Source of the DNA: a virus
Strand: one strand, 5' to 3'
Virus record (IMG/VR): IMGVR_UViG_3300010354_000006
DNA length: 45,220 bases
Numbering within the stretch: the first letter of the stretch is position 1; every line of letters starts with the position of its first letter. Shown in pieces: positions 2,499-45,220 of the stretch. Under the pieces are notes generated by a model, which made no database searches, was not told the origin of the DNA, and saw nothing but the letters and a program-made list of their open reading frames with translations. The position numbers and the translations under genes were made by a program.

Positions 2499-3215
2499 AT
2501 GAAAGCAGCAGACATAGAAATAGTAATCACAAAACAAGCAGGTTCAGGTGACCTTTATGAAGGTTATCTTTTTTACAAAAAAATAGCCTTGCAGTCAGTT
2601 AAAGGCGAAAAAATAACTTTTGAAGATAAGCAGTCTAAAAAGCCTTCAACTTTTATTAATTTATTCATGGAAGGTAAACCCGTAGAAATAGAGGATTATA
2701 CTAACAGTAAAGGCGAAAAAGGGCAGCGACCTAAGCCAGATATTCAGCTTTGGGCTACAGTTTTTCAAAGTGGTTCAGTGCAGGTTAGAGGTGATTTTAT
2801 TTCTGATTTTGGTTTATTCTACCAAGTGGAAGGATACTTTTCACCTGAAAGAGAAAGTTTTACCGTAAGAGAAAGAATTTATGATAAAAAAAATGAGTAC
2901 GACAATAAAGCTCAATTCAATTTCATTGAAAAATATGCGGAGATAATAACAGATATTCCAGAAGTTGAATATTCTGAGGAAGATTTAGCTTTGTCTGTTG
3001 AGCTTTTCCCTGATGCAGCAGATTTTTACGAAAAATATGCAAGCATTAAGAAAGTTGCTGTCAAAGATTTAGTTAATGCTAATGCTCCTAGATTAATGCC
3101 TGGTGCAGCTAAAAAGAAAGCTCCTGTTACTCAAGGGCAGATTGATTTAGCTAAAGATAATTTAACTAAAGTTAAGGCTAAAAGAGTAGTAGAGACAGAG
3201 GAGATACCATTTTAA
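2499..3215 (+). CDS. Putative single-stranded DNA-binding protein (divergent)
   Basis: C-terminal acidic tail ending EEIPF is the SSB tail motif; position directly after ERF; OB fold not verifiable by eye. Confidence 0.4.
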   Translation: MKAADIEIVITKQAGSGDLYEGYLFYKKIALQSVKGEKITFEDKQSKKPSTFINLFMEGKPVEIEDYTNSKGEKGQRPKPDIQLWATVFQSGSVQVRGDFISDFGLFYQVEGYFSPERESFTVRERIYDKKNEYDNKAQFNFIEKYAEIITDIPEVEYSEEDLALSVELFPDAADFYEKYASIKKVAVKDLVNANAPRLMPGAAKKKAPVTQGQIDLAKDNLTKVKAKRVVETEEIPF

Positions 3216-3505
3216 TGAAATTAAATAATGATATACGCTGTTTAATTGAGACTTTAGTAAATAGAGTCATGGATTTCAACGAAAACTCAAAAGTCGAAAA
3301 AGCAGTAATTCACATTACCGAAAAAGGGATATACCTATTTTTTGATTTTGACCATTGGGTGGATAATTCAGGAATTTGGGGAACTACAGAGAAACAACTA
3401 GCCGAGATGATTTCTTGGCTAGAGGACAAAATAGCTTTATCCCAGAAGGACGAAGTAGACCCTAAAGCCGAGGCTCAAAGAGAGCTAGATAAGGAGCAGA
3501 TATGA
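3215..3505 (+). CDS. Hypothetical protein (96 aa), acidic C-terminus
   Basis: ORF track; ATGA overlap with upstream gene. Confidence 0.45.
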   Translation: MKLNNDIRCLIETLVNRVMDFNENSKVEKAVIHITEKGIYLFFDFDHWVDNSGIWGTTEKQLAEMISWLEDKIALSQKDEVDPKAEAQRELDKEQI

Positions 3506-3795
3506 AAAAAGTAAGAAAAGTTAATCTAGAAATCGGCTCAATAGAAAAGTATCAAAAAAACAATAAGCTACCTGATAATTTTTTGACGATTTTAATTGCT
3601 AGGTACAAAGCAGGAGAAATTAAACCTGTATACAAAAAAATTGAAAAACAAAACAGGAAGACTCACGGACTAACAGCTACTAACGATGAATGGTGTTTTC
3701 TAAAAATGGAAGCTCTTAGAAAAGGGGTTAAAATTGGGGGAGAGGGAGCTGCTGGAATCATTAGGGCTTTAATTAATGGGGATGCAATCGAATGA
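3502..3795 (+). CDS. Hypothetical protein (97 aa)
   Basis: ORF track; overlapping start/stop. Confidence 0.45.
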   Translation: MKKVRKVNLEIGSIEKYQKNNKLPDNFLTILIARYKAGEIKPVYKKIEKQNRKTHGLTATNDEWCFLKMEALRKGVKIGGEGAAGIIRALINGDAIE

Positions 3796-4004
3796 TAAAC
3801 AACGAAAAACAAGACATCATAGAATCGCTTAAATTGGTTCAAGCTATTAGCCTGAAAGCCGCATTAGATGGCGATTATAGAATAGTAGCGGGGATGGAAG
3901 TAATTAAAAATTGCTTGTATGAGTTGGGGTGCATTTTTGAAATTGAGGAAGTTGTAAACCGAAAATTAGCAATCGACAAGCTGGAGAGATGTTTTAAATT
4001 ATGA
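3792..4004 (+). CDS. Hypothetical protein (70 aa)
   Basis: ORF track; overlapping start/stop. Confidence 0.4.
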   Translation: MINNEKQDIIESLKLVQAISLKAALDGDYRIVAGMEVIKNCLYELGCIFEIEEVVNRKLAIDKLERCFKL

Positions 4005-4861
4005 AAAAAATAACAATACTAACTAGCTTACTTGCAGTAGGGCTTAATCAAGCTCAAGCTGCCGTATATCATTGGGACAATGGAAAGAATGCTTACTGGG
4101 CAGGCACTAAGCCAGTGCAGCTAGTGATTGATACTGAATACCCGCAAGAAGTCATCGACAGAGTTTTTGAAATTTTAGAGCCTTATCCGATTGTTTTAAA
4201 AGAAAGGAAAAATATTGATTTAGCTTACGTTCCTGCTGTCAATGAAATAGCCGTAGCTTACGCCAGTATTTACAACAACACAGGAGCTTCTTTTGTAAAC
4301 CCTGCTTACAGATTACCAGATGGAGGGCTTAATCGTGGCTTATGTGCCACTGGTACTGCTTCTAGCGTAGAGCGTTTAGCGTGGATCATTACTCACGAGA
4401 TATTTCACTCTATCGGGATAGATCACATTCAACCTTTTAGGGTAGGTGAAGGTTTAGCAAAACCAAGAGGCTTAATGACAAGTTTTAAACCAAACTTAGG
4501 CTTTCAGCATGACGATTTAAGGGCTTTATCTGAGACTTTAAAAGAAGAGTTTTTAGACGATACTGTAACCGTAAGTGGTACTATCACTCCATTAAAAGGC
4601 ATGGTACTAAACTTTGTTAATGTAGATAGTCCAAAAGACTCAGCTCAAATCGTACCTAGCTATTTTTTTGAAAACAAAACAGAGTATGAGATCAAGAGGC
4701 TAAAGAAAGGCAGGTACTACATAAATGTTACGCCCGTTAAAGGCAGAGCTGGGATTTTAAACTCATTTTCTAAGCCATCTACATACTCTAAGATTAGATA
4801 TTTTAGGGGAAAGAGAATAATAAACATTGATAAAGATAGGGTTTTAAACTTAGAGTTTTAA
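4001..4861 (+). CDS. Secreted metzincin-like zinc metalloprotease
   Basis: Signal peptide MKKITILTSLLAVGLNQAQA and exact HEXXHXXGXXH motif (HEIFHSIGIDH), with a possible Met-turn (GLMTSF) downstream. Confidence 0.6.
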   Translation: MKKITILTSLLAVGLNQAQAAVYHWDNGKNAYWAGTKPVQLVIDTEYPQEVIDRVFEILEPYPIVLKERKNIDLAYVPAVNEIAVAYASIYNNTGASFVNPAYRLPDGGLNRGLCATGTASSVERLAWIITHEIFHSIGIDHIQPFRVGEGLAKPRGLMTSFKPNLGFQHDDLRALSETLKEEFLDDTVTVSGTITPLKGMVLNFVNVDSPKDSAQIVPSYFFENKTEYEIKRLKKGRYYINVTPVKGRAGILNSFSKPSTYSKIRYFRGKRIINIDKDRVLNLEF

Positions 4862-4873
4862 TCAGAGGATTGA

Positions 4874-5053
4874 ATGAAATATAGAGTAGAGATAGACGGA
4901 TACACCAAAACAACTCAATATGCAATTGTCGAAGCAAAATCAAAAGAAGAAGCTATAACTATTTTCAATAAGGGCAAGTTAAATTATGAGTATGATTTTG
5001 AAGATTTTGAGATAGCACAACAAGCTGAACCAATCGCTAGCGAGGAAGAATAA
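4874..5053 (+). CDS. Small hypothetical protein (59 aa), below the ORF-track cutoff
   Basis: ATG at 4874 preceded by GAGGA RBS; stop overlaps next ATG. Confidence 0.3.
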   Translation: MKYRVEIDGYTKTTQYAIVEAKSKEEAITIFNKGKLNYEYDFEDFEIAQQAEPIASEEE

Positions 5054-5280
5054 TGACAGAAGATTTAATTGTGGGTAACTTCTACACATTTAAAAAACAG
5101 CAATTAGTTTACGCAGGCTACCAGAAAGACCCTTATTTTAACAACGATTGGTATAAATTCACAATCGCTAAGCCTATTGAGCTACCAGAACCTTTAGGCA
5201 GTTTAACCGAGATTATTTTGTGGAACAACGAGATAGAAGAATTAAGAAAACCAAATGAAAAAACCAAAGCCACCGATTAG
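5053..5280 (+). CDS. Hypothetical protein (75 aa)
   Basis: ORF track. Confidence 0.4.
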   Translation: MTEDLIVGNFYTFKKQQLVYAGYQKDPYFNNDWYKFTIAKPIELPEPLGSLTEIILWNNEIEELRKPNEKTKATD

Positions 5281-5449
5281 AACTTTAGTTCTTCAAACAG
5301 AAGAAGAATTAAACAAGATCAAGAAAATGTATCCTGAATCTGATTTTGTTAGGTGCATTAAATGGATAGAATTAAGGCTACCAGAGAAGGCTTCTTTAAT
5401 AATTAATGGTAAAAATTATCACCGCTTTAGATTGGAGAGCAAAAAATGA
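5255..5449 (+). CDS. Hypothetical protein (64 aa)
   Basis: ORF track; start uncertain. Confidence 0.35.
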   Translation: MKKPKPPIRTLVLQTEEELNKIKKMYPESDFVRCIKWIELRLPEKASLIINGKNYHRFRLESKK

Positions 5450-5799
5450 AAATTACATACCCAGATTACATCCCAAATTGGAGCGGCTCAAGAGGCAGAG
5501 CATACCCCTCACCAGAAGACATCGCAAGAACGAATCCGCAAGCTAAAGGCTTAAGTGATAAGCAAAGAAAACTTTTACAAAGGCATCATATTGATTTAGA
5601 CCGCATGAACGCAGACCCTAAAAACATACACCTGCTTGACCCTGCGACTCACGAAGCAGTACACCGCCAAGAAAGAGCTTTATCTTCTGCTTTAATTAAA
5701 GCTGGAATTGTCAAGTACGATAAGCAAAATCCACATTATTACATCGCACATCCTCAAGTGAGAAAAATTTTAGAAAAAATGTTTGTGGGGGGTAAATGA
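5446..5799 (+). CDS. Hypothetical protein with HNH-like His/Asn motif (possible nuclease)
   Basis: RHHIDLDRMNADPKNIHLLDPATHEAVH has HH...N...H...H spacing; no Cys zinc ligands, weak call. Confidence 0.35.
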   Translation: MKITYPDYIPNWSGSRGRAYPSPEDIARTNPQAKGLSDKQRKLLQRHHIDLDRMNADPKNIHLLDPATHEAVHRQERALSSALIKAGIVKYDKQNPHYYIAHPQVRKILEKMFVGGK

Positions 5800-6365
5800 T
5801 AATTGTAGGAATCGACCCAGGGATAAAAGGTGGAATAGCTATTATAAATAGCGAATCCCCGAACACGCCAGCAGTTTACCCTATGCCTATTAGGCAAGAA
5901 GAAACTAAAACAAAAAAGAAAGTTAAAGCCTTAACAAAAAAAGAAAAGCTCGCTAAAAAACAAGGTAAAACCATTTATAAAACTAAAAATATCATAGACT
6001 CTAAAGCTTTTTTTGACATCTTGTATGAAGTCATCATGACAACTAGAGATATTGATTTAGTTTTAATCGAGAAACCTTTTTATCTTGGCATAGAATCTAG
6101 GACTTCTACTGCTACTACTGCTGAAAATTACGGACGATTAAGGGGAATCATGGAGTCATGCAAGTTAGATGTTAAAACAGTTAGGCCGCAAGAATGGAAA
6201 AATTACTTCGATTTGCCTGCTGATAAAGGGGAAGCAATAGCTAAGGCTAAAGAGCTATTCCCCTTAGTGAATTTAAAAGCTTCTAATAGGTCAAGAACAG
6301 ACTCAGACGGCATGGCAGAAGCTTTGCTAATAGCAGAATATGGGAGAATTAAAAATGCTAATTGA
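5796..6365 (+). CDS. RuvC-like Holliday junction resolvase
   Basis: N-terminal IIVGIDPGIKGGIAII (RuvC GIDPG block), IEKPF acidic residue, C-terminal DSDGMAEALLIAEYG resembling the RuvC DAADALAIA catalytic block. Confidence 0.7.
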   Translation: MIIVGIDPGIKGGIAIINSESPNTPAVYPMPIRQEETKTKKKVKALTKKEKLAKKQGKTIYKTKNIIDSKAFFDILYEVIMTTRDIDLVLIEKPFYLGIESRTSTATTAENYGRLRGIMESCKLDVKTVRPQEWKNYFDLPADKGEAIAKAKELFPLVNLKASNRSRTDSDGMAEALLIAEYGRIKNAN

Positions 6366-6629: not shown

Positions 6630-6893
6630 ATGAGTACAATAGCGAATCTAGAAATATATTTTAGAAATTACAAAGATTGCATTTCCCCATATTTTTGCGA
6701 TAAGGATGAAATTTTATTTATTTGCAAAAAAGAAATTAAAAAAAGAAAGAGGGGTAGCGATGAACCTTTTAAAACTATTTTTATCGGTGGTACAGTGGGA
6801 GAAACTAAAGCTTTCATCGATGGCGTACTTAAGGCTCATTGGTACATAGACAAGTTACTTCAAAGCAAATTAGGCGAGGTCAGGGGAGAATGA
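6630..6893 (+). CDS. Hypothetical protein (87 aa) flanked by the 41-bp repeats
   Basis: ORF track; flanking duplicated junction. Confidence 0.4.
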   Translation: MSTIANLEIYFRNYKDCISPYFCDKDEILFICKKEIKKRKRGSDEPFKTIFIGGTVGETKAFIDGVLKAHWYIDKLLQSKLGEVRGE

Positions 6894-6929
6894 GATTTTT
6901 AATTAACTTCTTAAAAGCACTTGGGGTTT
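6889..6929. repeat. 41-bp direct repeat, copy 2 (start of the intact membrane protein gene)
   Basis: Matches 6584-6624 with 2 mismatches. Confidence 0.8.
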
Positions 6930-7090
6930 TTCTTGGCTATGGATTAGGCAGTTATTTAGTTTTTGAGCTTTTAAAGACTTACGCCGCTTCATTTATACCT
7001 TATTTAATTTGGGTATTTTTCTGGCTTTTGGTTGTTTCTATTTGTGCTTTATGTGCTTCTTGGGCTTGCCACATGGAGAGGACGAAATGA
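6890..7090 (+). CDS. Small membrane protein, holin-like candidate (66 aa)
   Basis: Start moved to in-frame ATG 6890 (track ORF began 6839); two hydrophobic segments. Confidence 0.4.
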   Translation: MRFLINFLKALGVFLGYGLGSYLVFELLKTYAASFIPYLIWVFFWLLVVSICALCASWACHMERTK

Positions 7091-7239
7091 GTAAAGAACT
7101 TGTACTGCAAACTATAGCTATGTTTTTATTGTCATGGCTTTACTGCTATGCTCTTTCAAAAGAAACTTGGCTTAGTGTGATTACTGCCGCTCTGATGGCG
7201 ATTCTTTCTGTTATCAGCTATTACTTTAAAAAAAAGTAG
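7087..7239 (+). CDS. Small membrane protein (50 aa)
   Basis: ATG 7087 after GGAGAGGA RBS (track ORF began 7009); hydrophobic helix. Confidence 0.35.
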   Translation: MSKELVLQTIAMFLLSWLYCYALSKETWLSVITAALMAILSVISYYFKKK

Positions 7240-8060: not shown

Positions 8061-8477
8061 ATGACGATTTTAAACCGCCAATTAACACCTAACATAAGCC
8101 TCTATGAGCTTCTTTACACCCCAACTGTAAACAAAGCTGAAATAGCCCCGCTCATTGAGCAGGCTTGGAGTATTGAGGTAGATAGAAACTTAACTAAACT
8201 TGCTACTGCTTTGCAGATCATTAGAGATTATTTTGGTAAACCTTTAATCATCACGAGTGGCTTTAGACCTGTAACTTGGGAATTAAAAAGAAATAGAAGC
8301 GGTAAATCCCAACATACTAGCGGACTAGCTGCTGATTTTAGGGTCTCAGGCGTGCCACTTTCAGAAGTCTATGCTTTTGTTAATGCGACTTTTAAAAAAG
8401 GTGGTAGAGCTATAAACCCTGTAGCAAATTTTATTCACTTAGATTTAAGACCAGAATATGCCACTTGGACTTATTAA
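8061..8477 (+). CDS. Peptidase M15 family (LAS-type zinc peptidase), endolysin-like
   Basis: SGFRP, SQHTSGLAADF and FIHLD blocks give the H..D...H zinc-ligand pattern of M15 peptidases. Confidence 0.6.
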   Translation: MTILNRQLTPNISLYELLYTPTVNKAEIAPLIEQAWSIEVDRNLTKLATALQIIRDYFGKPLIITSGFRPVTWELKRNRSGKSQHTSGLAADFRVSGVPLSEVYAFVNATFKKGGRAINPVANFIHLDLRPEYATWTY

Positions 8478-10615: not shown

Positions 10616-12252
10616 ACTAAAACTATAAGCTCCTGCATTTTTGTACTCAAATGTGATTTCAACAAAACCACATCGTATAAGTCAGTGCCATCTATAGCTA
10701 CATAAGCCGCCATTCTATTTCCTACTGCTGCCGTACCAGCTTGAATATCATCTGTCGGTGTGTAGGGAGATAAAACTCTGTTCTTTGCATCGAACCTAAA
10801 AATTTGATTAATTGCAGAAGCTACATAAGCATTAATGTACGTGAACCTACCTTCTCCATTAAATGGGGAATAAGCGGCACTTGCACCCGTTCCCATCGTA
10901 ATTACGTTGCCGTCATAAACTACTGCACCAGTCCATAAACCAGTCGTACCGCCTGCTATGTCAAGCAAGTCTAGTGTTACTGCACTTCCTCTGAAAAAGA
11001 ATAAATGCGAATGTCTAGCGTTTTTTTGTGTGTCTGGTTGGATTCCATACGCAGGACACCAAATGTTCCCAGCAGCATTAGCCGCAGGAGCAGTACCAAA
11101 AAGAGTTGTACTCCAAGTGTTCGCAGCTAAGTTAGTTGTTCCGTTGTTGTAAGCGGCATCGTTATAATTGTACGTATAAGTAGTTGTGTTTGCAGCAGTT
11201 CTTAAAACTAACAAGTTAGGATACTCTATGACATATTTAGCCGTGCTTGAAGGTTGAACAGTCCAGTTTGCACCTAATGTGTAGACAGGACTTGCACCTG
11301 CAGTATGCGAAGCAATATACGCTCTTTGATTGATTGCTGTTGGATTCGTTGTATCTTGAACTATTCTGATCTGAAAATTTCTATACTCATTCGCTAAAAC
11401 TCCAGAATCCCCACCACTAGCTTGACCAGTAATCGTGTTTGCGGTAGTTGCTGTTGCTGTTAGAGCTTTTCTTGACACTAAATTATTATCATACTCAAAA
11501 GTACCTTTGATGAATCCTTCACCTGGATTATGGTTATAAGGAGTGTATTGCTCGTCTAAAGCCACTATAGCCGAATCAGTCGCAGGAGTAGGAAGCCCAG
11601 CAGTTCCACCATTCGCTAGAGTGTTTGCAGCAACTTCGAAACTTCTAAAAGAAGTAGCCACTATAGCACCAGCACTTAGCATAAAAACTCTGCCAGCTAA
11701 AATCTCATACAAGTCTCCATTAGCTGGAGTGAATGTAAGTGCATTATCAAGTATAAAAGTTGGGGTTGTTCCTGCTGTGTTCGCTACAATAAATCTTTCT
11801 TCTACTTTTCCAGCAGCTCTGCCAATAATTCTAATTTTAAAACCATAGTCTCCAGAACCACCACGATTAGCAAGCATGTTAGCTCCTACCGCAGTAATTA
11901 CAGTTGATGTAGGAATACTTGTAGTAGTAGCTCCTGTTGTGATTGTTCCTTTAAGTCCTTGAGATGGAGCAAACACTGTTGCAGCACCAATACCAAAAGT
12001 TCCACCGAGTCCAGGGTTTATCGCTAGTGCTGAACTCTTTGTGATAATGTTAAACCTGTTGAGTGTGGCAGTGGACAGTAAATCATAAACAAAGGGATTT
12101 CTTGAAATGTCTGAGCGTAAATCTGAACATAAGCAAGCACCTGCTGCATGTGCATTTGGAGCTGGAGCTACAGGAATCCACATAGGTCTATCTATTACTT
12201 TTTTAAAATTGTTTGCCATTAACTTATTCTTCCTCTCACTATTTGAGACCAA
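10612..12252 (-). CDS. Putative virion structural protein, Gly/Thr/Ala/Asn-rich (fibre or receptor-binding-like)
   Basis: Composition and position among fibre genes; probable true start at internal MANNFKK. Confidence 0.45.
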   Translation of the reverse strand: MVSNSERKNKLMANNFKKVIDRPMWIPVAPAPNAHAAGACLCSDLRSDISRNPFVYDLLSTATLNRFNIITKSSALAINPGLGGTFGIGAATVFAPSQGLKGTITTGATTTSIPTSTVITAVGANMLANRGGSGDYGFKIRIIGRAAGKVEERFIVANTAGTTPTFILDNALTFTPANGDLYEILAGRVFMLSAGAIVATSFRSFEVAANTLANGGTAGLPTPATDSAIVALDEQYTPYNHNPGEGFIKGTFEYDNNLVSRKALTATATTANTITGQASGGDSGVLANEYRNFQIRIVQDTTNPTAINQRAYIASHTAGASPVYTLGANWTVQPSSTAKYVIEYPNLLVLRTAANTTTYTYNYNDAAYNNGTTNLAANTWSTTLFGTAPAANAAGNIWCPAYGIQPDTQKNARHSHLFFFRGSAVTLDLLDIAGGTTGLWTGAVVYDGNVITMGTGASAAYSPFNGEGRFTYINAYVASAINQIFRFDAKNRVLSPYTPTDDIQAGTAAVGNRMAAYVAIDGTDLYDVVLLKSHLSTKMQELIVLV

Positions 12253-12772: not shown

Positions 12773-13555
12773 ATGTCTTATAATAAGAACATGAGTTTAT
12801 CTAACCTGTTAGACAAGATAAAAAAAATCCCAGTTCTTAAGAAAAACGAAGAAGAAGAGTTGGCTTCTTGGTTTAATTCCAATGAATTAGCAAGACCAAT
12901 TTATGAAAAGATTTTAATTTATCATAACTTAAGATTGGCTAGGCATATTGCAAATAGATTTATAGACAGGGGTTATGAGCTAGAAGATTTAATTTCAGAA
13001 GCTGTTACAGGTTTAAAGCGTGCTGCTGAAAAGTTTAATCCAAAACTAGGCTATAGATTTAGCACTTACGCTGGGCAATGGATTAACCAACGAATCCAAA
13101 AGTTTATTCAAACTTCTTCAACGATTAAAATTCCCGTATTGAAATATTACGCAATTCAAGAGCTGCATAGCCTACTTAATGTTGAACCACTAGAGACTAT
13201 TAGAGAAAAATTAAAGCTTTCAAAAAATCAATTTAATAAATTATACCAAGCCTACTCAAGCCAATTAGTTGAGTCTATAGATGTACCTTTGAATGACCAT
13301 GAATTAATTAAAGAAAGTATCCCTTTTGCCTCAAAAGAATATGATGATCTTTCGGAAAATTTAGAATACTTCTTATCTCAAATCCCCAAAGATGAATACC
13401 CTATAGTCCTAAGTTATCTAAATCAAGAGTTTACTAAAAATAAACTATGCGAAATTTATAACTTAACCTTTATTGAATTAAATCAAATACTGAACCGCAA
13501 TGTAACCTTCTTAAAAGAATCTTTGCGAGGGGATTACGAAGCCTTAAGACTTTGA
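12773..13555 (+). CDS. Sigma-70 family RNA polymerase sigma factor
   Basis: Region 2 signature ...AAEKFNPKLGYRFSTYAGQWINQRIQKFI... (FSTYA.WWI.Q consensus) and a C-terminal helix-turn-helix-like segment. Confidence 0.75.
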   Translation: MSYNKNMSLSNLLDKIKKIPVLKKNEEEELASWFNSNELARPIYEKILIYHNLRLARHIANRFIDRGYELEDLISEAVTGLKRAAEKFNPKLGYRFSTYAGQWINQRIQKFIQTSSTIKIPVLKYYAIQELHSLLNVEPLETIREKLKLSKNQFNKLYQAYSSQLVESIDVPLNDHELIKESIPFASKEYDDLSENLEYFLSQIPKDEYPIVLSYLNQEFTKNKLCEIYNLTFIELNQILNRNVTFLKESLRGDYEALRL

Positions 13556-16852: not shown

Positions 16853-19800
16853 TTAATAGCCTCTCAACTCTGCAAGTTGTTTTTCTCTCAATTTTTTCTC
16901 TTTAGCTGCTCTGTCTTTTTGCTTTGCTTCAATCGCATTTTCATATTGCTTTCTACCAGCAGGACTCCACGCATATAATGTTTTACCAGCGATAGGAATA
17001 TTATTCACTAAAATCCTAGACAAGAAAGGATTATATTCTTCGCCTGTATCTACTGCCTTCCTGTATTCTTTTACATCGGCATCTAACGCATCAAGCCATG
17101 GAGCTGCAGGCATAATAAAGCTTCCAAACCCTGCCGCTAAACCTTGCTTATCTAACTTGTAAAACATATAAGGATTTACTATTGGTATAAATGTTTGAAA
17201 AGCTGCCTCAACCGCTCTCTCTTCTAAAGATTGATATTCTTCGCTTGTTTTTCCTTTGATTATATCTTTAAAATAATTAATTCCATAGTTTGAACCACCA
17301 ACTAAAACACTAAGAGCAATAGCGTTTCTTAGGGATTCGCCTAATTGTTTAGTGTTTTGTTTGTTTAATCCTTTAGTTGCAATAGATTTAATCCCATTTG
17401 CCATACCACTGTAGACTTCATCTTTAGTGAATTGAAGCATTTTTAAACTAAAGCTTTTTAACGCATAAAAGAATCTTAGGTCTGGAGCTTGTAAGTATCC
17501 AGCAGGCATATCGCTTAAAGATAAAACTTGCGTTCCTGAAAGGCGTTCAAATAAAGCAAGCCCAATGCTATCATCGTCATACGCTTCTTTTAAATCTTTA
17601 GTACGAAAAGCTTGTACCATTCTATCGGCTTCATCTACCCCGAACATGCTTTTTAAATAAGAATATTCTTTATCGAACTTCGCACCTTTTTCTTTTGTAA
17701 AAACATTTTTAAAATAATTAAATCCTGCATTTAACTGTGTTTCTTGCATTAATTTATTCGCTGCCCTAAAACCGTTTATCTTCAAAGCAAAATCAACAAC
17801 TTTACGAACCACGGAAGGATTATCAGCATAATCCGCACCGATACGGGCAATGCCTAAGTCTAAGGTTTTTACAGTCTCAGGGTCAAATGATTGCCCTAAA
17901 CCTTTAATAGTATTCAAAATACCATTCCTATAAGCACTAGTGCCAAGCTCCGTAGCCTGTGTTATTGTACTTTGAATATCATTCAGAGCAGTAAGCAATG
18001 CTCCGTCTTTAGCTAAACGAGCAAAATTAGCTGGCTTTTTAGGACCATTAACAAAACGTGCTGTAAGTAAATCCTTAACCTTAACAACTTGTTCACTTGA
18101 GATTTCATTGTTTTGTCTTAGACTATCTGTAAAAGCACCGACACTTGTAGTTAAATCTGCACCATCCGCTCTACCAAAGAATTTACGACTCTCTATGTCA
18201 AAAGTAGAGCGATTAATATAATTCTCTAATACTGTAGCTGGGTCTTCGTATAAGTCAGAAAGAAAACGCTCGTTCCCTTTAGCATCCTTAAAAATAATCC
18301 CTTCCATCTGTTGAGCCAATCCCGATCTAGGTTTTCTGTTAGAAAGTGTTGGGGTGCTGCCTACTCCACCGTAACCTCTTAAAAACTTATTAGTAAACTC
18401 AATTCGCTCTAGCTCCTCAAGTTCACGCCCAAGTTTTTTTCTTTCTTTAGCTAAAGCTGTATCGTATTCTGTCCTTGTTGCTGGATCAGCTTTTAAATCA
18501 TCTGTGATTTTATCTAAATCAAAAAGTGAACGCCAAGTCTCAACGCTATCTTTTTTAACACTTGTTGGGAAATAATTTTCAATAAAACCTACTTCAAGCC
18601 CCGCTTCGGTTTGTTGTGCATAAAGATCATCAAGGACAGGTCTAACCCCTGTTTCGTATAGTTCCGTTAAAGGTTTATTTATTAATTTCTCAAAATCTCT
18701 TGCGGTGTCTTCCGCCTCTAAAAATTTTAAAGGTACTTTAAATATTGGTGGCAGTTCCTTAAACTGTCGCCCTTCTTTATCAATCTTAGATAAGAAAGCC
18801 ATGATTGCATCATGGTCGCCTTTAATTAAATAAGAGTTAAAAATTTTCTTTTCATTTTTGCTTAATAATTTCCCTAACTTGCTGAATAAAGGCATTGCTT
18901 GAGATAAATGTTTATTTGCAATTTTTGAACTTGCAAATTCAAACTTGCGAAGCTGCCCTGCTAAAGATGGGTTAATGTCTCTTAAAGCTGATATTATTGG
19001 TTGTACTAAAGTATTCCATAAGTTCCCCGCATTTTCAGCAGTTTGAATAATTTTGTTTTTAGGTTTTTTAGTTGCAGTTGGCATTTCCACAGAAGCATCA
19101 CTAATGAAAGCTCCAGTATTTTCAACTTCCGCTTTCCCTACTTCACTTTTCATTTTTGCTATTAACGCTGGATGGCGGTACATCGCTTTATACATATCGT
19201 TTAAAGCTTCTTTTTCTAATTCAGCTCTTGAGATTGTTTTTTCTTCGGTCTCTATAATCGGGTTGCGTTCTGCCTTAAGCTTTGCTAACTGAGAATCAAT
19301 TTGATCTAATTCCTCTTTAGCAATCATTCGATCAATTTCGATATCATCAGCATTACGCAAAACAGGAGTCTCTATTCCCATCTTCTCTCTGTATTCTCTT
19401 AAAGCATCTTTCTTAAATTGACGATTTAAAGCTACTTCTTTTTGTTTCTTTAATGCCTCTCTACGCCTATTTAAATAATCTATCTTATCTTTAACTTCCT
19501 GCTCAAGCTTTTGCTGTTGCTCTAATAAAGCTTGTTTCTTGGCTTGAAAGTCAGATACAGCTTGATTTCTATTTGCATTAGTTACACTAAGCCTAGTATC
19601 TACATCTGATCTAGCTGCATTGTATTCGTCATCTAATGCTTTAAGTCTCTGTTCTTTAAGTTGTTGCTTTTGTAATTCTATGTCTTGCAAACGCTTTGTT
19701 TCTACATCTGCTTTTAATTGATTTATTTCAGCTTGCTTTGCTTCTAATGCTTGTTGTTGTTTTGTCTTTACAGTCTCTATTTGCTTTGCTACTGTTTCTT

Positions 19801-22468
19801 GTAGTTTTTTTAATTTCTCTGGGTAAGTTTTATTTTTAAATTTATTTAATTGCTCTTGTATTTTATTTCGTTGTTCCTCTGCTTTTTTTAAAGATGGGTT
19901 ATCTAAAATAGGTTTTAATGATTCTTTTTGCTGTAAAAGAGATTCAAGGTTTGCTTTTTCTTCTTTTAGCCCCGATTCAAGTTTTCCAATCTTTTCTTTT
20001 GCAAAAGATTTAATATTCGCTATCTTTTTTTGAGTTGCTTCTTTTACTTGATATTTATATTTACCAAGTGCAATGTTCGCCGTTTTAATACTTGGGATTG
20101 CATTTAGCTCTTCTTGCGTTAAAGACTCCCCTGATTTACTACGCTTATCTCGTCTTTTTTGTTTTAAAGCATTAACTTTATCTTCTTGTGCTTTTAATTG
20201 TTGCTCTGCTTTAGTTTTTACTACTTCAATTTGACGATTAGCCGTTTCGTTTATTTCTTTTAATTTTTGTGCATAAAGTTTTTTAGAAGCATCTAGTCTT
20301 TTTTTTGTTGCAGTTATTATTTTCTCTGTTTCATCAAATTTCTCTAACGCCCCTTCTTGCAGGAAATCACGTTTAATTTTATTGTAAGCAATATCAGCTT
20401 CCTCAGAAGCCTCTTCTAATTTTTGCAATTCAAGCTTTAAGGCATCAATTTTTTTTGTTATAAAAACTTTAATATTTTCAACCTTAGTTTTAACTTCGGA
20501 ACTTAAATCTTTTTGAAATTTGTTAAATGAAATTTTATAAGTAGGATCAAGTTTATTTAATTGCTGTTCTGCTAATTCTGTTTGCTTTGCCTTTAAACTT
20601 TTTTCAAAATCAGCTTGAGATGCCGTTAGTTTACTAGCGACCTGCTCTTCAGTTTGCTTAACTGCTTGAGAATATTGACCTTCTAGTTTTTGATTGTTTC
20701 TTTCTAAGCTTTGTAATCTATTTTCAAAATATTGCTTAACTCGTTTTGCTTTTTTTTCTTTACTTACCGAGTCTGGTAAGTTATTAATTTCATCAAGCGA
20801 TTTAGAATACTCTGCTTTAGTTTGTTCAATTTCACGTGCGTAAGATTCTTGCTTCTGTTTAAATTTAATATCAAGTTCTGCAATTTTTGTTTGCCTAGAT
20901 TCTTCTAGCTGAGTTTTTAAACTTTCGTATTTAGTATTTGTTTCTTTTTGAAAAAGATTAAATTCTTCTTCGTAATTTCTTTGTGGTGCCGTTGCTGTTT
21001 CTTGGGAAACAGTTTCGGGAGTTTCAGTGATTTCTACAGGCTCCGTCTCAGCTTGTTTTTTAGCACGTTGATAAGAGTCATTAACTTGCTTCTGTTGTTT
21101 AGCTAAATTCTTTTCTTCTAAATCAAATGGCTTAGTTAATGTACGCTCTTGCTTGTCTATATCAGCTTTCTGTTTAAGCAGGTTTTTTGTTTTCTGTTCA
21201 CTTTCTCTTTGGATTTCAGATACTAATTTATCTTGCTCTGTGTCTATCTGCTTGAAAGCTGTTTGCTTTTCAGCTTCGTACATCTCATTTAAAGTAGATA
21301 CATTCTGCCTAGTCTCTTCTTTAAGCCCTAAACGTGTTTGCTCTTCTGCTAATTGCCCTTGCCTTTGTTCTGTCAAAGACCTAGCTTGCATTAAATCAGA
21401 TTCAATCTTTTCGTATTTTAATGCTGCTGCTGCTTTTGCTTCTTCTGCTGCCCTTGCTTCGTTAGCACCTTTAGCCTTGTATGCTTCTACATTACGTCTA
21501 TTAAATGCTCTTTTTGTTTCAGCTATACCCTTTAAAGATTCTTTACTATTGCCCCTAAAGATAAAGCCTTCTTGCCCTTGAGCCATTCTGCCCGCTTCTC
21601 TTAAAGCTTGCTTGCCGTAATTTTTGGTTAGTGCTGCTCCAATACCTTCTATCGCTCCACCAAACGTAGTATCTATAGCTAAATTTAGAGCTAAGTCTTT
21701 AAGGTTAATGTTCCCCTCTTCGTCCATTGAAGCCGAGAGAGACAATGGAGAACCTGCTATTGTGTTAGCTGCTGCACCTGCTATAAATCTTTTAGTTCCT
21801 GCTTGTGCTATAACTTTTTTAGTTGCTTCTCGTGCTGCTGTGCCTGCAATCCCTTTAGCTGTTAAATCTTTAAATATGTTTGCCGCTAAAGCACCTTCGC
21901 TAGCTGCTCCAAAAGCTTTAGCATAAATTGACCCACCTCCGAGTAACCCAACTACTGTACCAAGTCCAGTAGGTAAATCTTGGAATCCTTGCCCTTCTTG
22001 TATCCCTGTAACATCACTTGCTAAATCTTGTATGAATTGACCAGTTTGAGCTAGACCTTGAGATACAGGGTCTAACTCTCTCTTAACCCTCTCCCTGCCT
22101 GCAAAAGTATCCATCATTAATTCTGCTGGAGATGGAATAGCTTTAGATGCTCCGTATAAAGCTTTAGGAGCTTCTAACATTAAAGCTGGAATCTCTGCTG
22201 CTGATTTAAGCCCTGCTGCTATTGTCTTGCCAGCTATAGGAATGCTTTGTATTGCATCTGCTATGGCTTTTTTTGCATAAGCTCCTGAATTGATACGGTC
22301 AGGGGTTAATTTGCTTGCTGCAAATTGTAATTCATCTGGAGTTAATTCACGTCCAATATCGTCTTGATAACGAGTTAAAGCTGCCTCTGTGTATTTAACA
22401 GCCTGATCTTTTAAAAGTGGATTTATACTTTTAGCTTTTAAATCTTCAATAAAATTTTCAATTCCCAT
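16853..22468 (-). CDS. Very large virion protein (1871 aa) with long central coiled coil; internal/ejection protein or tape-measure-like
   Basis: Uninterrupted 5.6-kb ORF; central Lys/Glu/Gln-rich heptad region. Confidence 0.55.
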   Translation of the reverse strand: MGIENFIEDLKAKSINPLLKDQAVKYTEAALTRYQDDIGRELTPDELQFAASKLTPDRINSGAYAKKAIADAIQSIPIAGKTIAAGLKSAAEIPALMLEAPKALYGASKAIPSPAELMMDTFAGRERVKRELDPVSQGLAQTGQFIQDLASDVTGIQEGQGFQDLPTGLGTVVGLLGGGSIYAKAFGAASEGALAANIFKDLTAKGIAGTAAREATKKVIAQAGTKRFIAGAAANTIAGSPLSLSASMDEEGNINLKDLALNLAIDTTFGGAIEGIGAALTKNYGKQALREAGRMAQGQEGFIFRGNSKESLKGIAETKRAFNRRNVEAYKAKGANEARAAEEAKAAAALKYEKIESDLMQARSLTEQRQGQLAEEQTRLGLKEETRQNVSTLNEMYEAEKQTAFKQIDTEQDKLVSEIQRESEQKTKNLLKQKADIDKQERTLTKPFDLEEKNLAKQQKQVNDSYQRAKKQAETEPVEITETPETVSQETATAPQRNYEEEFNLFQKETNTKYESLKTQLEESRQTKIAELDIKFKQKQESYAREIEQTKAEYSKSLDEINNLPDSVSKEKKAKRVKQYFENRLQSLERNNQKLEGQYSQAVKQTEEQVASKLTASQADFEKSLKAKQTELAEQQLNKLDPTYKISFNKFQKDLSSEVKTKVENIKVFITKKIDALKLELQKLEEASEEADIAYNKIKRDFLQEGALEKFDETEKIITATKKRLDASKKLYAQKLKEINETANRQIEVVKTKAEQQLKAQEDKVNALKQKRRDKRSKSGESLTQEELNAIPSIKTANIALGKYKYQVKEATQKKIANIKSFAKEKIGKLESGLKEEKANLESLLQQKESLKPILDNPSLKKAEEQRNKIQEQLNKFKNKTYPEKLKKLQETVAKQIETVKTKQQQALEAKQAEINQLKADVETKRLQDIELQKQQLKEQRLKALDDEYNAARSDVDTRLSVTNANRNQAVSDFQAKKQALLEQQQKLEQEVKDKIDYLNRRREALKKQKEVALNRQFKKDALREYREKMGIETPVLRNADDIEIDRMIAKEELDQIDSQLAKLKAERNPIIETEEKTISRAELEKEALNDMYKAMYRHPALIAKMKSEVGKAEVENTGAFISDASVEMPTATKKPKNKIIQTAENAGNLWNTLVQPIISALRDINPSLAGQLRKFEFASSKIANKHLSQAMPLFSKLGKLLSKNEKKIFNSYLIKGDHDAIMAFLSKIDKEGRQFKELPPIFKVPLKFLEAEDTARDFEKLINKPLTELYETGVRPVLDDLYAQQTEAGLEVGFIENYFPTSVKKDSVETWRSLFDLDKITDDLKADPATRTEYDTALAKERKKLGRELEELERIEFTNKFLRGYGGVGSTPTLSNRKPRSGLAQQMEGIIFKDAKGNERFLSDLYEDPATVLENYINRSTFDIESRKFFGRADGADLTTSVGAFTDSLRQNNEISSEQVVKVKDLLTARFVNGPKKPANFARLAKDGALLTALNDIQSTITQATELGTSAYRNGILNTIKGLGQSFDPETVKTLDLGIARIGADYADNPSVVRKVVDFALKINGFRAANKLMQETQLNAGFNYFKNVFTKEKGAKFDKEYSYLKSMFGVDEADRMVQAFRTKDLKEAYDDDSIGLALFERLSGTQVLSLSDMPAGYLQAPDLRFFYALKSFSLKMLQFTKDEVYSGMANGIKSIATKGLNKQNTKQLGESLRNAIALSVLVGGSNYGINYFKDIIKGKTSEEYQSLEERAVEAAFQTFIPIVNPYMFYKLDKQGLAAGFGSFIMPAAPWLDALDADVKEYRKAVDTGEEYNPFLSRILVNNIPIAGKTLYAWSPAGRKQYENAIEAKQKDRAAKEKKLREKQLAELRGY

Positions 22469-26167: not shown

Positions 26168-26530
26168 TTACTTACCCCTTCTAAATTTATTATAAAATCG
26201 TGGATCTACGCCTTGCGGTGTTGGGGTTTCATCTTTTAAGATTTGCCCCGTTCCCATATCCATAAAATAATTTCCTACCCAATCCCTGTTTGGCATTCCT
26301 TCTTTCCAATACTTAGACTGCCTAGAGAAAGTTTCATGGTTGGGTAATTTATATTCATCAGTAAAGTGCATTTGATTGTCATAGGCACTAACGTCTTGAT
26401 TTGATTTACCTTTTAAAATTTCATTTTCAAAATAACCTTGCATATCGTAATCGTCAGAAAGAGGAACACCAAAAGCCTTAGCCCATGTATCAAAAAGGTA
26501 TTTTTTTATTTCATCCCTTTTGTTTACCAA
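26168..26530 (-). CDS. Hypothetical structural protein (120 aa)
   Basis: ORF track. Confidence 0.4.
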   Translation of the reverse strand: MVNKRDEIKKYLFDTWAKAFGVPLSDDYDMQGYFENEILKGKSNQDVSAYDNQMHFTDEYKLPNHETFSRQSKYWKEGMPNRDWVGNYFMDMGTGQILKDETPTPQGVDPRFYNKFRRGK

Positions 26531-27234
26531 TTCCTATCCCTTGATCTAACTCTAAATTTCCTACGACCTTTAATCTTTAAATTAAACTTGTTTTTAATAA
26601 TTGCTTTATTTAATGCCTCTTTTGCATCCATATCTAAAAGCTGTCTCCATTCAGGATCGCCTTTAGTTTTTCTTAACCATGCGTGAGTTGCCAAAACTAA
26701 AGCCCTTTGAAAGCTAGTAGGGAAAATAATATTATTTGCTATATTGCTCGCTGTAATTCTAAGCATTTCATAATTGTAAAAAGCTTGAATAGTATAAGCC
26801 GCATCAGGAACAGGAGCTAAATTAACTACTCCCTCGTCAATATAATAATAAAGCGGTCTGCCTTGGTTAGTGTTAATAAACTCTAATTCTTTGCCTTCTG
26901 TCTTAGAACGAGGTAAAATCTCAGAATAGTTTTCTCCTGCTTCAACTAAAACTAATTTAGTTATTAACTGAGGATCCCAGCCGCCTACTGGAGCTGTTAA
27001 AACACTATTGCCTAGTGTAGCTGTTAGATTTTCTACAGGATTATAAAAATCATAATCAGAAGAAGATTCTAAAACCCACTGTACCGCTTGGTTTACGGCT
27101 TGAATACCTTTTAAAGCATTGCCGCTTGTCGCAGATGTTGCTTCAATTAAAGGGATTGGAGAATCAGCCTCCAATCCCCTAGCATCGTTTAATAAATTAA
27201 GATACGTTATTGGCAGTTTTTTGCTCCTCTTCAA
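26524..27234 (-). CDS. Putative head-tail adaptor / tail protein (236 aa)
   Basis: Position only. Confidence 0.35.
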   Translation of the reverse strand: MKRSKKLPITYLNLLNDARGLEADSPIPLIEATSATSGNALKGIQAVNQAVQWVLESSSDYDFYNPVENLTATLGNSVLTAPVGGWDPQLITKLVLVEAGENYSEILPRSKTEGKELEFINTNQGRPLYYYIDEGVVNLAPVPDAAYTIQAFYNYEMLRITASNIANNIIFPTSFQRALVLATHAWLRKTKGDPEWRQLLDMDAKEALNKAIIKNKFNLKIKGRRKFRVRSRDRNW

Positions 27235-33759: not shown

Positions 33760-35349
33760 TTAATAATGCAAAAATTTGCGTTTAGGCTTTGAACTTCGAG
33801 TAATAGTATTATTTTTTAACAAAGGAAATACATTGATAAAAGCATATCCGAGAGCATCCATTAAGTGTTCATAAAACCCATCTTTCTTTGGCTCTTCTTT
33901 AATATGATAAGCCCCCTCTTTTGGCATATCATAAACCCAGCCTGTTTCAAAAGTTTCAACGAATAACCCGTTTCGCTCATCTCCATTTTTAGAAATAAAC
34001 ATTCCCCCCGCAGGATTAACGATGACTCCCATAGCATCACCAATTCTACGAGACATTTTATTTCGTATTGCTATAGCTCTATCTGATGGAGCAGATTTTA
34101 TCCCATGAACTTTACGTTTAAAAAACTTTTCTAATATCTTAAATGCAGGCGGTGCAGTACCTTGACTGTTAGCTGATTTTCCTGCTGGGTCTGCATGTAA
34201 AATATATTCGGCATTGGGGAAATGTTTAGCAATATATTCAGCAATTAAAGCCATGAAATTTTCTAACTCCATATCTTCTGCTAAAATCCCATCATGCAAA
34301 ATGCAGCGATTTAAAGAATCCTTCTGCAAAAATACAACTGCTGGATAATGTGAACCAAAGTCAATTCCGATATGTAAAGGTAAATCTTCATCAAATGGAC
34401 AATCTTTATACGGCTCGCAATGAATTTCTCTAGAAAATTCGGGGATTACAGGTTTGCCAACTGGAACGGTAAACTTAAGTTCGTATTCTTGATCCCAAGT
34501 ATATGTATCTACTCCTGATGCTCCAGGAATTGGCTCACCGTTAGGATAAGCTCCATATCGTTCAGCGTGATACCATTCATCGCTACGTTTAAACGGATTA
34601 GCGGTATAATGAAGCTGTAATACAGTTTGGTTATATTCATTGCGATATTTAGCTAAACCAGTCATTAACTTTTCAATTTGTGAATTTTTAGCAATTTTAG
34701 TTACCAACTCTTGGAATTTAGTACCAAAACGTGGAGTTGATACTAAAGCTGCTCTTCCTCCCCCCTCTAAAGCAGGCTTTAAAGCCTTTAAGTTTTGATC
34801 TACGTTTTGTTGAAAAGCTAACTCATCATAAAAAGCATTAGTAATTGTTAGACCTCTGCATTTATCTGAACCTGATGGCAATGCTGTAATTGTTGAACCG
34901 ATTACAGGATTTCGCATTTCGGAGACTCTAATCTCTTTCCCTTCGGTTAATTTAGGATAAGGGAAGCGAAAATCTAACTTATCATATACCGCTTTACATC
35001 TTGTAGCGATAACCTTTTTAGCTCGATCTTCATTTATTGAAACAATGACATTTTCAGAATAAGGAACAAATAAAAGCTGATGTACCATTAATGTACTAAA
35101 AATATGCGTTGCCATCATACGCCTTGTTTTATTAACAACAATAACTTTATTTTTAAAATATTCATCAATTAAATGCTTAATATAAGCATAAGGCGGAAAG
35201 CGTTTTAATGGACTGCCTCTATCCGATTCATCAATCGTAAAGACCTGTTCGACCATCCAAAGAAAAGGGTCATTTGCCCATTGAGTCATTTTTAAAGTAA
35301 TAAACTCTGGGGTAAAATCTTCATTAGTGTATAGTCTATCTAAAATCAT
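33760..35349 (-). CDS. terL: Terminase large subunit
   Basis: Deviant Walker A-like VVNKTRRMMAT, Walker B-like NAFYDELAF, nuclease-domain-like HIGIDFG / ILHADPAG; size 529 aa. Confidence 0.7.
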   Translation of the reverse strand: MILDRLYTNEDFTPEFITLKMTQWANDPFLWMVEQVFTIDESDRGSPLKRFPPYAYIKHLIDEYFKNKVIVVNKTRRMMATHIFSTLMVHQLLFVPYSENVIVSINEDRAKKVIATRCKAVYDKLDFRFPYPKLTEGKEIRVSEMRNPVIGSTITALPSGSDKCRGLTITNAFYDELAFQQNVDQNLKALKPALEGGGRAALVSTPRFGTKFQELVTKIAKNSQIEKLMTGLAKYRNEYNQTVLQLHYTANPFKRSDEWYHAERYGAYPNGEPIPGASGVDTYTWDQEYELKFTVPVGKPVIPEFSREIHCEPYKDCPFDEDLPLHIGIDFGSHYPAVVFLQKDSLNRCILHDGILAEDMELENFMALIAEYIAKHFPNAEYILHADPAGKSANSQGTAPPAFKILEKFFKRKVHGIKSAPSDRAIAIRNKMSRRIGDAMGVIVNPAGGMFISKNGDERNGLFVETFETGWVYDMPKEGAYHIKEEPKKDGFYEHLMDALGYAFINVFPLLKNNTITRSSKPKRKFLHY

Positions 35350-45081: not shown

Positions 45082-45186
45082 ATGAACGAACTAGAAGAAT
45101 TAAAAACAGTGCAATTAATTATTAATTTTGTCGTAGTAATAGCTATCCTAGCTGTAGCCGTAACAGTTGGGAGGTACTTGGGATGA
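45082..45186 (+). CDS. Small membrane peptide (34 aa, single predicted TM helix); stop overlaps ATG of the 65-aa ORF (equivalent to 86..283)
   Basis: AAGGAAAAG RBS; hydrophobic core IINFVVVIAILAVAVTV. Confidence 0.3.
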   Translation: MNELEELKTVQLIINFVVVIAILAVAVTVGRYLG

Positions 45187-45220
45187 GAGAATTAGACCGC
45201 CAAAAATGGCTTCCAGTGGA
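45098..45220. repeat. Second copy of the 123-bp terminal direct repeat
   Basis: Exact match to 1-123. Confidence 0.9.

Follow-up and report, generated by a model that had tools for sequence, protein, structure and literature searches.

An apparently phage-restricted family of predicted exported metzincins related to bacterial matrixin-like proteins

Background

To our knowledge, exported proteases are rare among described phage genes, with Mtz-Tim of Listeria as the sole studied case. Here we analyze a protease gene located at positions 4001-4861 of a 45,220-bp viral sequence (IMG/VR record IMGVR_UViG_3300010354_000006; the whole stretch is referred to below as the window), the product of which is very probably an exported two-domain metzincin. 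In Listeria monocytogenes and Listeria prophages, Mtz is a phage-derived secreted metzincin; it alters the cell envelope and enhances lysis by phages (Boichis et al. 2021, PMC8235301). Compared by features rather than by sequence, Mtz resembles the window protein in being a metzincin exported by the Sec/signal peptidase I (SPI) route and in carrying the HExxHxxGxxH/D motif and a Met-turn; it acts on the cell envelope and constitutes an accessory gene in prophages (PMC8235301). The gene is found in Gram-positive hosts, downstream of the holin-lysin genes and adjoining a gene for a lipoprotein that resembles tissue inhibitors of metalloproteinases (TIMP-like) (PMC8235301). The window protease, in contrast, has no partner gene, occupies an early/middle position, belongs to a phage with a probably diderm host, and contains an additional C-terminal domain.

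The M10A peptidases, such as karilysin from Tannerella forsythia and the vertebrate matrix metalloproteinases (MMPs), share with the window protein the metzincin fold, the zinc motif, a catalytic domain of ~160 aa, and the Asp-Asp pair of helix C. The MMPs additionally have a structural zinc site, formed by three His residues plus an Asp in the S-loop, besides calcium sites. Archaemetzincins (AmzA) are cytoplasmic and contain a second, Cys4 zinc site. Bacterial proteins of ~310-340 aa that combine the PF00413 and PF13620 domains (e.g., P0204 of Terriglobales, P0105, and P0106) have the same order of parts as the phage protein; P0204 carries the name 'matrixin family metalloprotease' in one source.

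Active site and conservation

The gene and the residues that define its predicted active site are as follows:

4001-4861, (+) strand: protease gene, ATG start, 286 aa; the ATG overlaps the upstream stop codon (ATGA)
4394-4426, (+) strand: zinc-binding/catalytic motif HEIFHSIGIDH, residues 132-142 (H132, E133, H136, G139, H142)
4475-4477, (+) strand: Met159, candidate Met-turn (RGLMTS), 17 residues past the third His
4511-4516, (+) strand: D171-D172 at the start of helix C, corresponding to the DD of the matrixin 'DDxxGIxxLY' helix; the helix spans 170-180 in both structure models

A preliminary description of the window had reported a metzincin-like protein of 286 aa with an exact HEXXHXXGXXH site in this open reading frame (ORF). 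The reading frame, its length, and the site are all as reported, and three features bear out the metzincin-like character: the motif, remote homology to bacterial proteins with a matrixin domain, and the predicted fold. A six-frame translation of the window contains the 11-residue motif HExxHxxGxxH a single time, and none of 300 shuffles contains it; the short form HExxH is found twice, with ~2 occurrences expected. The full motif is kept in all full-length relatives (101/101) and in each of the 56 rows of an alignment with bacterial matrixin-like proteins. A second conserved segment, [RK][GP]LM[TV]S, with the Met placed exactly 17 residues past the third His, is likewise present in 101/101 full-length relatives, and Met159 aligns with the Met of the bacterial PF00413-bearing matrixin-like proteins. 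D171-D172 are invariant in these 101 relatives as well.

A search of 5.8 billion proteins revealed at least 85 clusters with 58-100% identity, all 85 of them metagenomic and lacking both a Pfam domain and an informative name; at least 12 relatives sit on contigs of 41-52 kb, which represent near-complete genomes, and IMG/VR holds six copies. Two clades are recognizable among the relatives, an AVYHW type and an EVYRW type. Tblastn searches of 50,697 phage records, with the protease as well as with a bacterial homologue, found no copy in isolate phages; no PHROG was matched by the bacterial homologues, and no cellular copy was found in 185,579 species genomes. Relative to an 82%-identical copy, the ratio of nonsynonymous to synonymous substitution rates (dN/dS) is ~0.07, with dS near saturation. 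Judged by these sequence comparisons, the gene is real and under strong purifying selection. As the catalytic Glu and the Met are invariant in 101 sequences under such selection, the protein is probably catalytic.

Fold, domains, and family placement

Two domains are predicted in the mature protein:

4061-4549, (+) strand: metzincin catalytic domain, residues 21 to ~183, comprising beta1, helix A, beta2-5, the active-site helix B, the Met-turn loop, and helix C
4556-4858, (+) strand: C-terminal beta-sandwich of the transthyretin/CarboxypepD_reg type, residues ~186-286, delineated by a profile match, hhalign, and strands in both models

Two AlphaFold models (predicted local distance difference test, pLDDT, 67 and 66; predicted template modelling score, pTM, 0.62 and 0.68) have in common a strand, helix A, four strands, helix B with HExxH, a loop, helix C, and a beta-sandwich. 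Both thus predict the metzincin order of elements, while the loop that would shape the Met-turn under the zinc is poorly modelled in model 1. The extended zinc motif, the downstream Met, and the fold of the catalytic domain together correspond to those that define the metzincin clan.

Family libraries contain no entry for the protein: PHROGs and NCBIfam have no family for it, and the BFVD viral structure library yields nothing at E ≤ 0.001. Among 28 members of the family, 23 show Peptidase_M10 matches below threshold (best E 0.0011). An exhaustive profile search (hmmsearch) over 1.84 billion representatives matched four proteins, namely the family's own representative, the CarboxypepD_reg-repeat protein P0104 (at profile positions 180-250), P0105, and P0106. 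The last two match both the catalytic and the C-terminal parts with E ~5e-5, and P0106 passes the threshold of PF00413 Peptidase_M10 (32 bits against 24), with a CarboxypepD_reg-like domain following. Profile-profile comparisons by hhalign relate the family to P0106, to P0105, and to an alignment of 25 bacterial PF00413+PF13620 proteins with 95.6-96.1% probability, pairing the phage C-terminal sandwich with the PF13620 part of the bacterial homologues. The bacterial alignment in turn matches karilysin and MMP-3, -9, and -12 in the PDB with E-values from 1e-17 to 1e-14. In the joint 56-sequence alignment, the invariant columns are H132, E133, H136, G139, H142, M159, D171, D172, and G193, which include the metzincin zinc motif, the Met of the Met-turn, and the helix-C 'DD' of matrixins. 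On the basis of these alignments, the bacterial matrixin-like (M10) proteins with a CarboxypepD_reg domain are the closest kin of the phage family.

The two groups share the order of signal peptide, short linker ending in a conserved Trp, catalytic domain, and beta-sandwich, and HExxHxxGxxH, the Met, the helix-C DD, and a Gly that opens the sandwich do not vary in either. They differ, however, in several respects. Sequence identity is only 14-21%. The number of residues between the third His and the Met is 16 in the phage family and 7 in the bacterial proteins, which corresponds to a 9-residue insertion, although a few bacterial members likewise possess long loops. The residue following the third His is Ser in the bacterial proteins, whereas in the 101 phage relatives it is Gly (53), Ile (37), Val (9), or Thr (2). 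Moreover, the phage family stays below the Pfam thresholds for both domains and is found only on viral-looking contigs.

Compared with M10A peptidases, the phage protein lacks a pro-domain and the cysteine/aspartate switch (PRCGxPD): ~17 residues separate the predicted signal cleavage site from the first strand, and this segment is Cys-free. As no His occurs between residues 26 and 131, the structural zinc site of the MMPs is absent as well. The lack of a pro-peptide, of this zinc site, and of the Ser after the third His, together with the 9-residue insertion and the sub-threshold Pfam matches, sets the family apart from bona fide M10A matrixins; it is a new, apparently phage-restricted branch located beside M10 in the metzincin clan.

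The C-terminal domain was also considered as a sorting signal of the type IX secretion system (T9SS). Neither Por_Secre_tail nor TIGR04183 was detected in 28 members with Pfam or NCBIfam at E up to 10, and this assignment was rejected as lacking the support of hidden Markov models.

Export signal

The N-terminus resembles a signal peptide:

4001-4060, (+) strand: Sec/signal peptidase I-type signal peptide, residues 1-20 (MKKITILTSLLAVGLNQAQA), with the predicted cut between A20 and A21, after AQA20

By inspection, the N-terminus MKKITILTSLLAVGLNQAQA|AVYHW shows a basic n-region, followed by a hydrophobic core of 12 residues and an AXA site. Among the relatives, the first 20-45 residues are free to vary in sequence and length but stay hydrophobic. 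Where the junction ahead of the conserved mature start [AE]V[YH][HRQ]W is readable, the residues at -3 to -1 fit the small/x/small pattern in nearly every case (AQA 43, SSA 21, VSA 17, SNA 5, and others), and sequence conservation starts precisely at the predicted cleavage point. The n/h/c layout, the small residues at -3 and -1, and the onset of conservation at the cut are consistent with the signal peptide that had been proposed. The further claim that the protein is secreted holds in part: the export signal is present, but Sec export by itself would lead to the periplasm, not to the outside of the cell, if the host is diderm.

It is very unlikely that the protein, instead of being an exported protease, is a zinc hydrolase of another kind (archaemetzincin-, YbeY-, or SprT-like) that resides in the cytoplasm or is anchored in the membrane, or else a binding protein in which the motif has merely persisted. 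In NCBIfam, 15 members weakly match YbeY and 8 archaemetzincin, and Pfam gives a single weak match to SprT-like proteins; these matches could be read in this way, but all of them are sub-threshold and centred on the common H..H..G..H helix. In contrast to archaemetzincins, the phage protein has a signal peptide, and the Cys4 site is absent, as exactly one Cys is found in the mature part of 88/96 relatives. Some relatives possess a 27-residue hydrophobic N-terminus that might serve as a membrane anchor; an anchored form would still face the periplasm. For a non-catalytic binding protein, the complete invariance of the Glu and the Met under strong purifying selection would be difficult to explain.

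Operon and spread among phages

The protease gene lies in a tightly packed or overlapping series of (+)-strand genes that extends from position 1588 and is preceded by a promoter:

1544-1573, (+) strand: perfect sigma-70 promoter, TTGACA-18-TATAAT (12/12), between the GH24 lysozyme and Gam-like genes

The block behind this promoter contains the Gam-like gene (1588), Erf, five small genes, the protease, HNH, and RuvC. The promoter probably starts an operon that opens with the Gam-like gene, includes Erf and the protease, and reaches as far as RuvC, and the ATGA overlap at 4001 indicates translational coupling to the upstream gene. The neighbours at 3792-4004 and 4874-5053 have neither a signal peptide nor a lipobox. 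That the gene could be a moron with its own promoter and terminator is unsupported, as its start overlaps the upstream stop and the nearby promoter-like matches are weak (9/12); neither a promoter nor a terminator specific to the gene is evident.

Three unrelated phage backgrounds carry the protease. One is the window's own group (41-48 kb); the others are a T7-like podophage and a phage of 52 kb that has a ribonucleotide reductase (RNR) gene. In all three, it is found among early/middle DNA-metabolism genes (Gam/Erf/RuvC, helicase, or RNR) and, in the window, not in a lysis cassette, in keeping with the early-region location given in the preliminary description. Within the window group, its position is constant, while the recombination genes are swapped around it (AAA_24 or Erf; RusA or RuvC). 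On the T7-like podophage contig, the protease is 71% identical, as compared with 34% for the helicase. On the 52-kb contig (L013, IMGVR_UViG_3300034166_000764), it occupies 3001-3861 with 84% amino acid and 81% nucleotide identity and adjoins the gene of the RNR small subunit. There, the nucleotide similarity covers exactly window positions 4001-4862, i.e., the borders of the ORF; one neighbour is weakly related, and the rest of the phage is unrelated. Alignments of these backgrounds show that the gene moves as a single-gene cassette between unrelated phages. No TIMP-like or lipoprotein partner gene lies beside the protease in any of the backgrounds, and the neighbours in L008 and L013 differ. 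A free-standing, conserved cassette of this kind points to a target supplied by the host rather than by the phage.

The JGI assembly of the same sample divides the genome between two contigs, of 42,747 bp and 2,433 bp (loci L002, L003, and L017). The smaller contig corresponds exactly to window positions 3465-5897, which contain the protease and its small neighbours; such a division would be expected if this segment were common to co-existing phage genotypes with different flanks.

The phage and its host

The window is the complete genome of an uncultured aquatic phage, with an exact direct terminal repeat of 123 bp (1-123 and 45098-45220) and a G+C content of 35.8%. The genome of ~45.1 kb is either circularly assembled or terminally redundant, and the identical sequence was recovered from JGI, ENA, and Logan assemblies. 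Its gene set comprises terminase, adaptor, tail-fibre, Erf, Gam-like, RuvC-like, HNH, DnaB/DUF3987 helicase, GH24 lysozyme, and M15 peptidase genes; the terminal repeat and the terminase, portal/adaptor, Erf, Gam, and RuvC genes bear out that the protease is phage-encoded. No tRNA genes or Rfam families were found in the window, and RNA families and repeats in the protease region are at chance level only. No integrase or lysogeny module was found among the scanned window ORFs.

A sigma-70 family protein (Sigma70_r2, E 6e-14) is encoded at 12773-13555 (+), amid the (-)-strand structural block, and may be a phage sigma factor for late genes. A protein of 1,871 aa without a family match (16853-22468, (-) strand) and an SU10-type adaptor (26524-27234, (-) strand) suggest that the phage is a podovirus whose internal or tail protein is very large. 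The relative phage L004 contains a gene of the Acb2/Tad1-hairpin family (anti-CBASS/Thoeris sponge type) at 10618-10869 (-), near a DUF1353 gene.

No isolate phage is close to the window phage: its large terminase subunit (TerL) shows 24-30% identity to phages of many hosts, and the capsid-region protein, the lysozyme, and the helicase have no isolate-phage matches. A 64%-identical relative of the terminase (33760-35349, (-) strand), with syntenic neighbours of 30-51% identity, is located at 50-55 kb in a 358-kb contig (locus L016) of the marine particle-associated metagenome-assembled genome (MAG) DT-Caenarcaniphilales-1 ('Candidatus Caenarcanales bacterium DT_14', Melainabacteria). This region, with a G+C content of 36.6%, is possibly a prophage relative of the window phage, judged from similarity and synteny. 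Viruses have been linked independently to Caenarcaniphilales MAGs by Luo et al. (PMC9122931). The Melainabacteria prophage relative and the small, single-domain endolysins of the window suggest a diderm host, in which the Sec signal alone would deliver the enzyme to the periplasm and not outside.

The particle-associated origin of the MAG, the sole clue to the host, could also fit a role after lysis. In this case, the periplasmic enzyme would be freed with the progeny and would degrade matrix or particle proteins, the S-layer, or receptor-bearing debris, so that virions disperse instead of being lost on debris. The MMP and enhancin proteases of insect viruses provide an analogue. The absence of a pro-peptide and the binding-type beta-sandwich, as in secreted bacterial proteases, agree with such a role, and there is a weak BFVD match to an entomopoxvirus MMP-like protein (E 0.015). 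The match is not significant, however; the enzyme from each burst would be rapidly diluted in open water, and an early/middle gene position would not be needed. We therefore consider a post-lysis role rather improbable.

A prophage relative in a MAG might further suggest a metabolic helper or a host-benefit gene, the protease either supplying amino acids from periplasmic or external proteins during infection or serving the host in lysogeny. The bacterial homologues are indeed ordinary secreted proteases of heterotrophs, such as Terriglobales. Nevertheless, the absence of a lysogeny module among the scanned ORFs, the absence of a protease copy from the MAG with the prophage relative, and the lack of associated transporters or peptidase partners make a metabolic or host-benefit function the least probable of the alternatives discussed here.

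The second secreted protein and the lysis genes

The preliminary description had also mentioned a second secreted protein in the vicinity of the protease:

296-625, (+) strand: 'second secreted protein', 109 aa; signal peptide and C-terminal sequence ETGIRRIGR conserved, central part helical

The protein is real and its N-terminus signal-peptide-like (MKKTILLSLLLLGQAALA|D). It has 33 homologous clusters, apparently all within the phage group of the window, with relatives on the L004, L006, and L009 contigs. In a variant that is 38% identical overall (P0249), the signal peptide and ETGIRRIGR are almost unchanged, and the conservation of the latter suggests a docking peptide. A connection with the protease, on the other hand, does not hold. 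The gene lies 3.4 kb from the protease, upstream of the 1544-1573 promoter that separates the two, and belongs to another transcription unit coupled towards the lysozyme: it overlaps the next gene (622), which itself overlaps the GH24 lysozyme gene (1095). The portions of L008 and L013 that were retrieved contain no homologue, and the 109-aa protein encoded beside the protease in L008 is unrelated in sequence. A functional pair of the protease and the 109-aa protein was accordingly rejected.

Two peptidoglycan hydrolases are encoded 6.5 kb apart, a GH24 lysozyme (1095-1541, (+) strand) and a Peptidase_M15_3 protein (8061-8477, (+) strand). Two small overlapping ORFs at 6839-7239 (+) encode proteins with two transmembrane segments (2-TM) and are holin-like in appearance. 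A crude lipobox scan of the window revealed no ORF that could encode an o-spanin.

This inventory bears on the possibility that the protease is an accessory lysis factor after the model of Listeria Mtz, which would sensitize the wall or outer membrane to the endolysins by processing an envelope protein or by removing an outer-membrane tether, thereby replacing the missing spanins. Apart from the experimental precedent (PMC8235301), the two hydrolases, the small 2-TM proteins, and the outcome of the lipobox scan are compatible with such a role. The scan is crude, however, and spanins may have been missed. In addition, the protease is never found beside holin or endolysin genes, being placed among early/middle genes instead, and has no adjoining TIMP-like or lipoprotein partner in any background. 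We regard a dedicated lysis factor as unlikely, though clearly conceivable.

Proposed function

With a probability of roughly 50%, we propose that the protein is a catalytically competent zinc endopeptidase that cleaves host envelope proteins in the periplasm during infection. The protease would be transcribed with the early/middle recombination genes, probably from the 1544-1573 promoter, and exported by the Sec system with removal of the 20-residue signal peptide. Because it has no pro-peptide, it would be active once folded and zinc-bound. In a diderm host, a two-domain protease of ~29 kDa would thus be present in the periplasm well before lysis; its C-terminal beta-sandwich may dock on an envelope component, while the catalytic domain would cut host envelope proteins. 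Early timing is inferred from the translational coupling behind a 12/12 promoter and from the DNA-metabolism neighbours in all three backgrounds.

Two benefits could follow. Surface or periplasmic proteins bound by other phages or by the phage's own progeny might be removed, resulting in exclusion or receptor destruction. Alternatively, connections between the outer membrane and the wall might be loosened, aiding release. The work on Listeria Mtz-Tim provides an analogy, as it shows that a secreted metzincin of phage origin is able to weaken the envelope and to enhance lysis (PMC8235301). The early/middle position of the gene makes us lean slightly towards exclusion or receptor destruction rather than towards help in release.

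Several observations weigh against envelope cleavage during infection. The structure models are of moderate confidence (pLDDT 66-67), with residues 142-166 poor in model 1 and 90-118 in model 2. Pfam gives only sub-threshold M57 and Reprolysin_4 matches for the window protein, without PF00413, and a sequence search of the PDB with the family profile finds no chain even at E = 10. The sole clue to the host is a prophage relative in one MAG, a genome without a copy of the protease. A helper of lysis would be expected late and beside the lysis genes, and the protease is neither. We know of no protease involved in superinfection exclusion, and an unregulated periplasmic protease made early could harm the infected cell.

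A more specific proposal is that the family represents a new phage exclusion or receptor-destroying factor: a periplasmic metzincin, made early, would clip host envelope proteins, and its gene would pass as a cassette of its own between unrelated phages that share a host group (possibly Melainabacteria). Competing phages could then no longer use the infected cell or, later, its debris, and progeny would not be trapped there. We put this forward tentatively, as it is doubtful. A related, novel option would be that the protease replaces spanins by cutting outer-membrane tethers.

Conclusions

The protease belongs to a distinct family outside the existing protein models, which has entered at least two other types of phage as an exact single-gene unit. 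Such conservation combined with single-gene transfer is what genes directed at the host or at competitors typically show. Were the protein merely a generic released protease, it would be of modest interest. If its target is an envelope protein, proteolysis would constitute a means by which phages remove receptors or disrupt the outer membrane of diderm hosts, and the family would also offer a compact metzincin scaffold without a pro-peptide for biochemical study.
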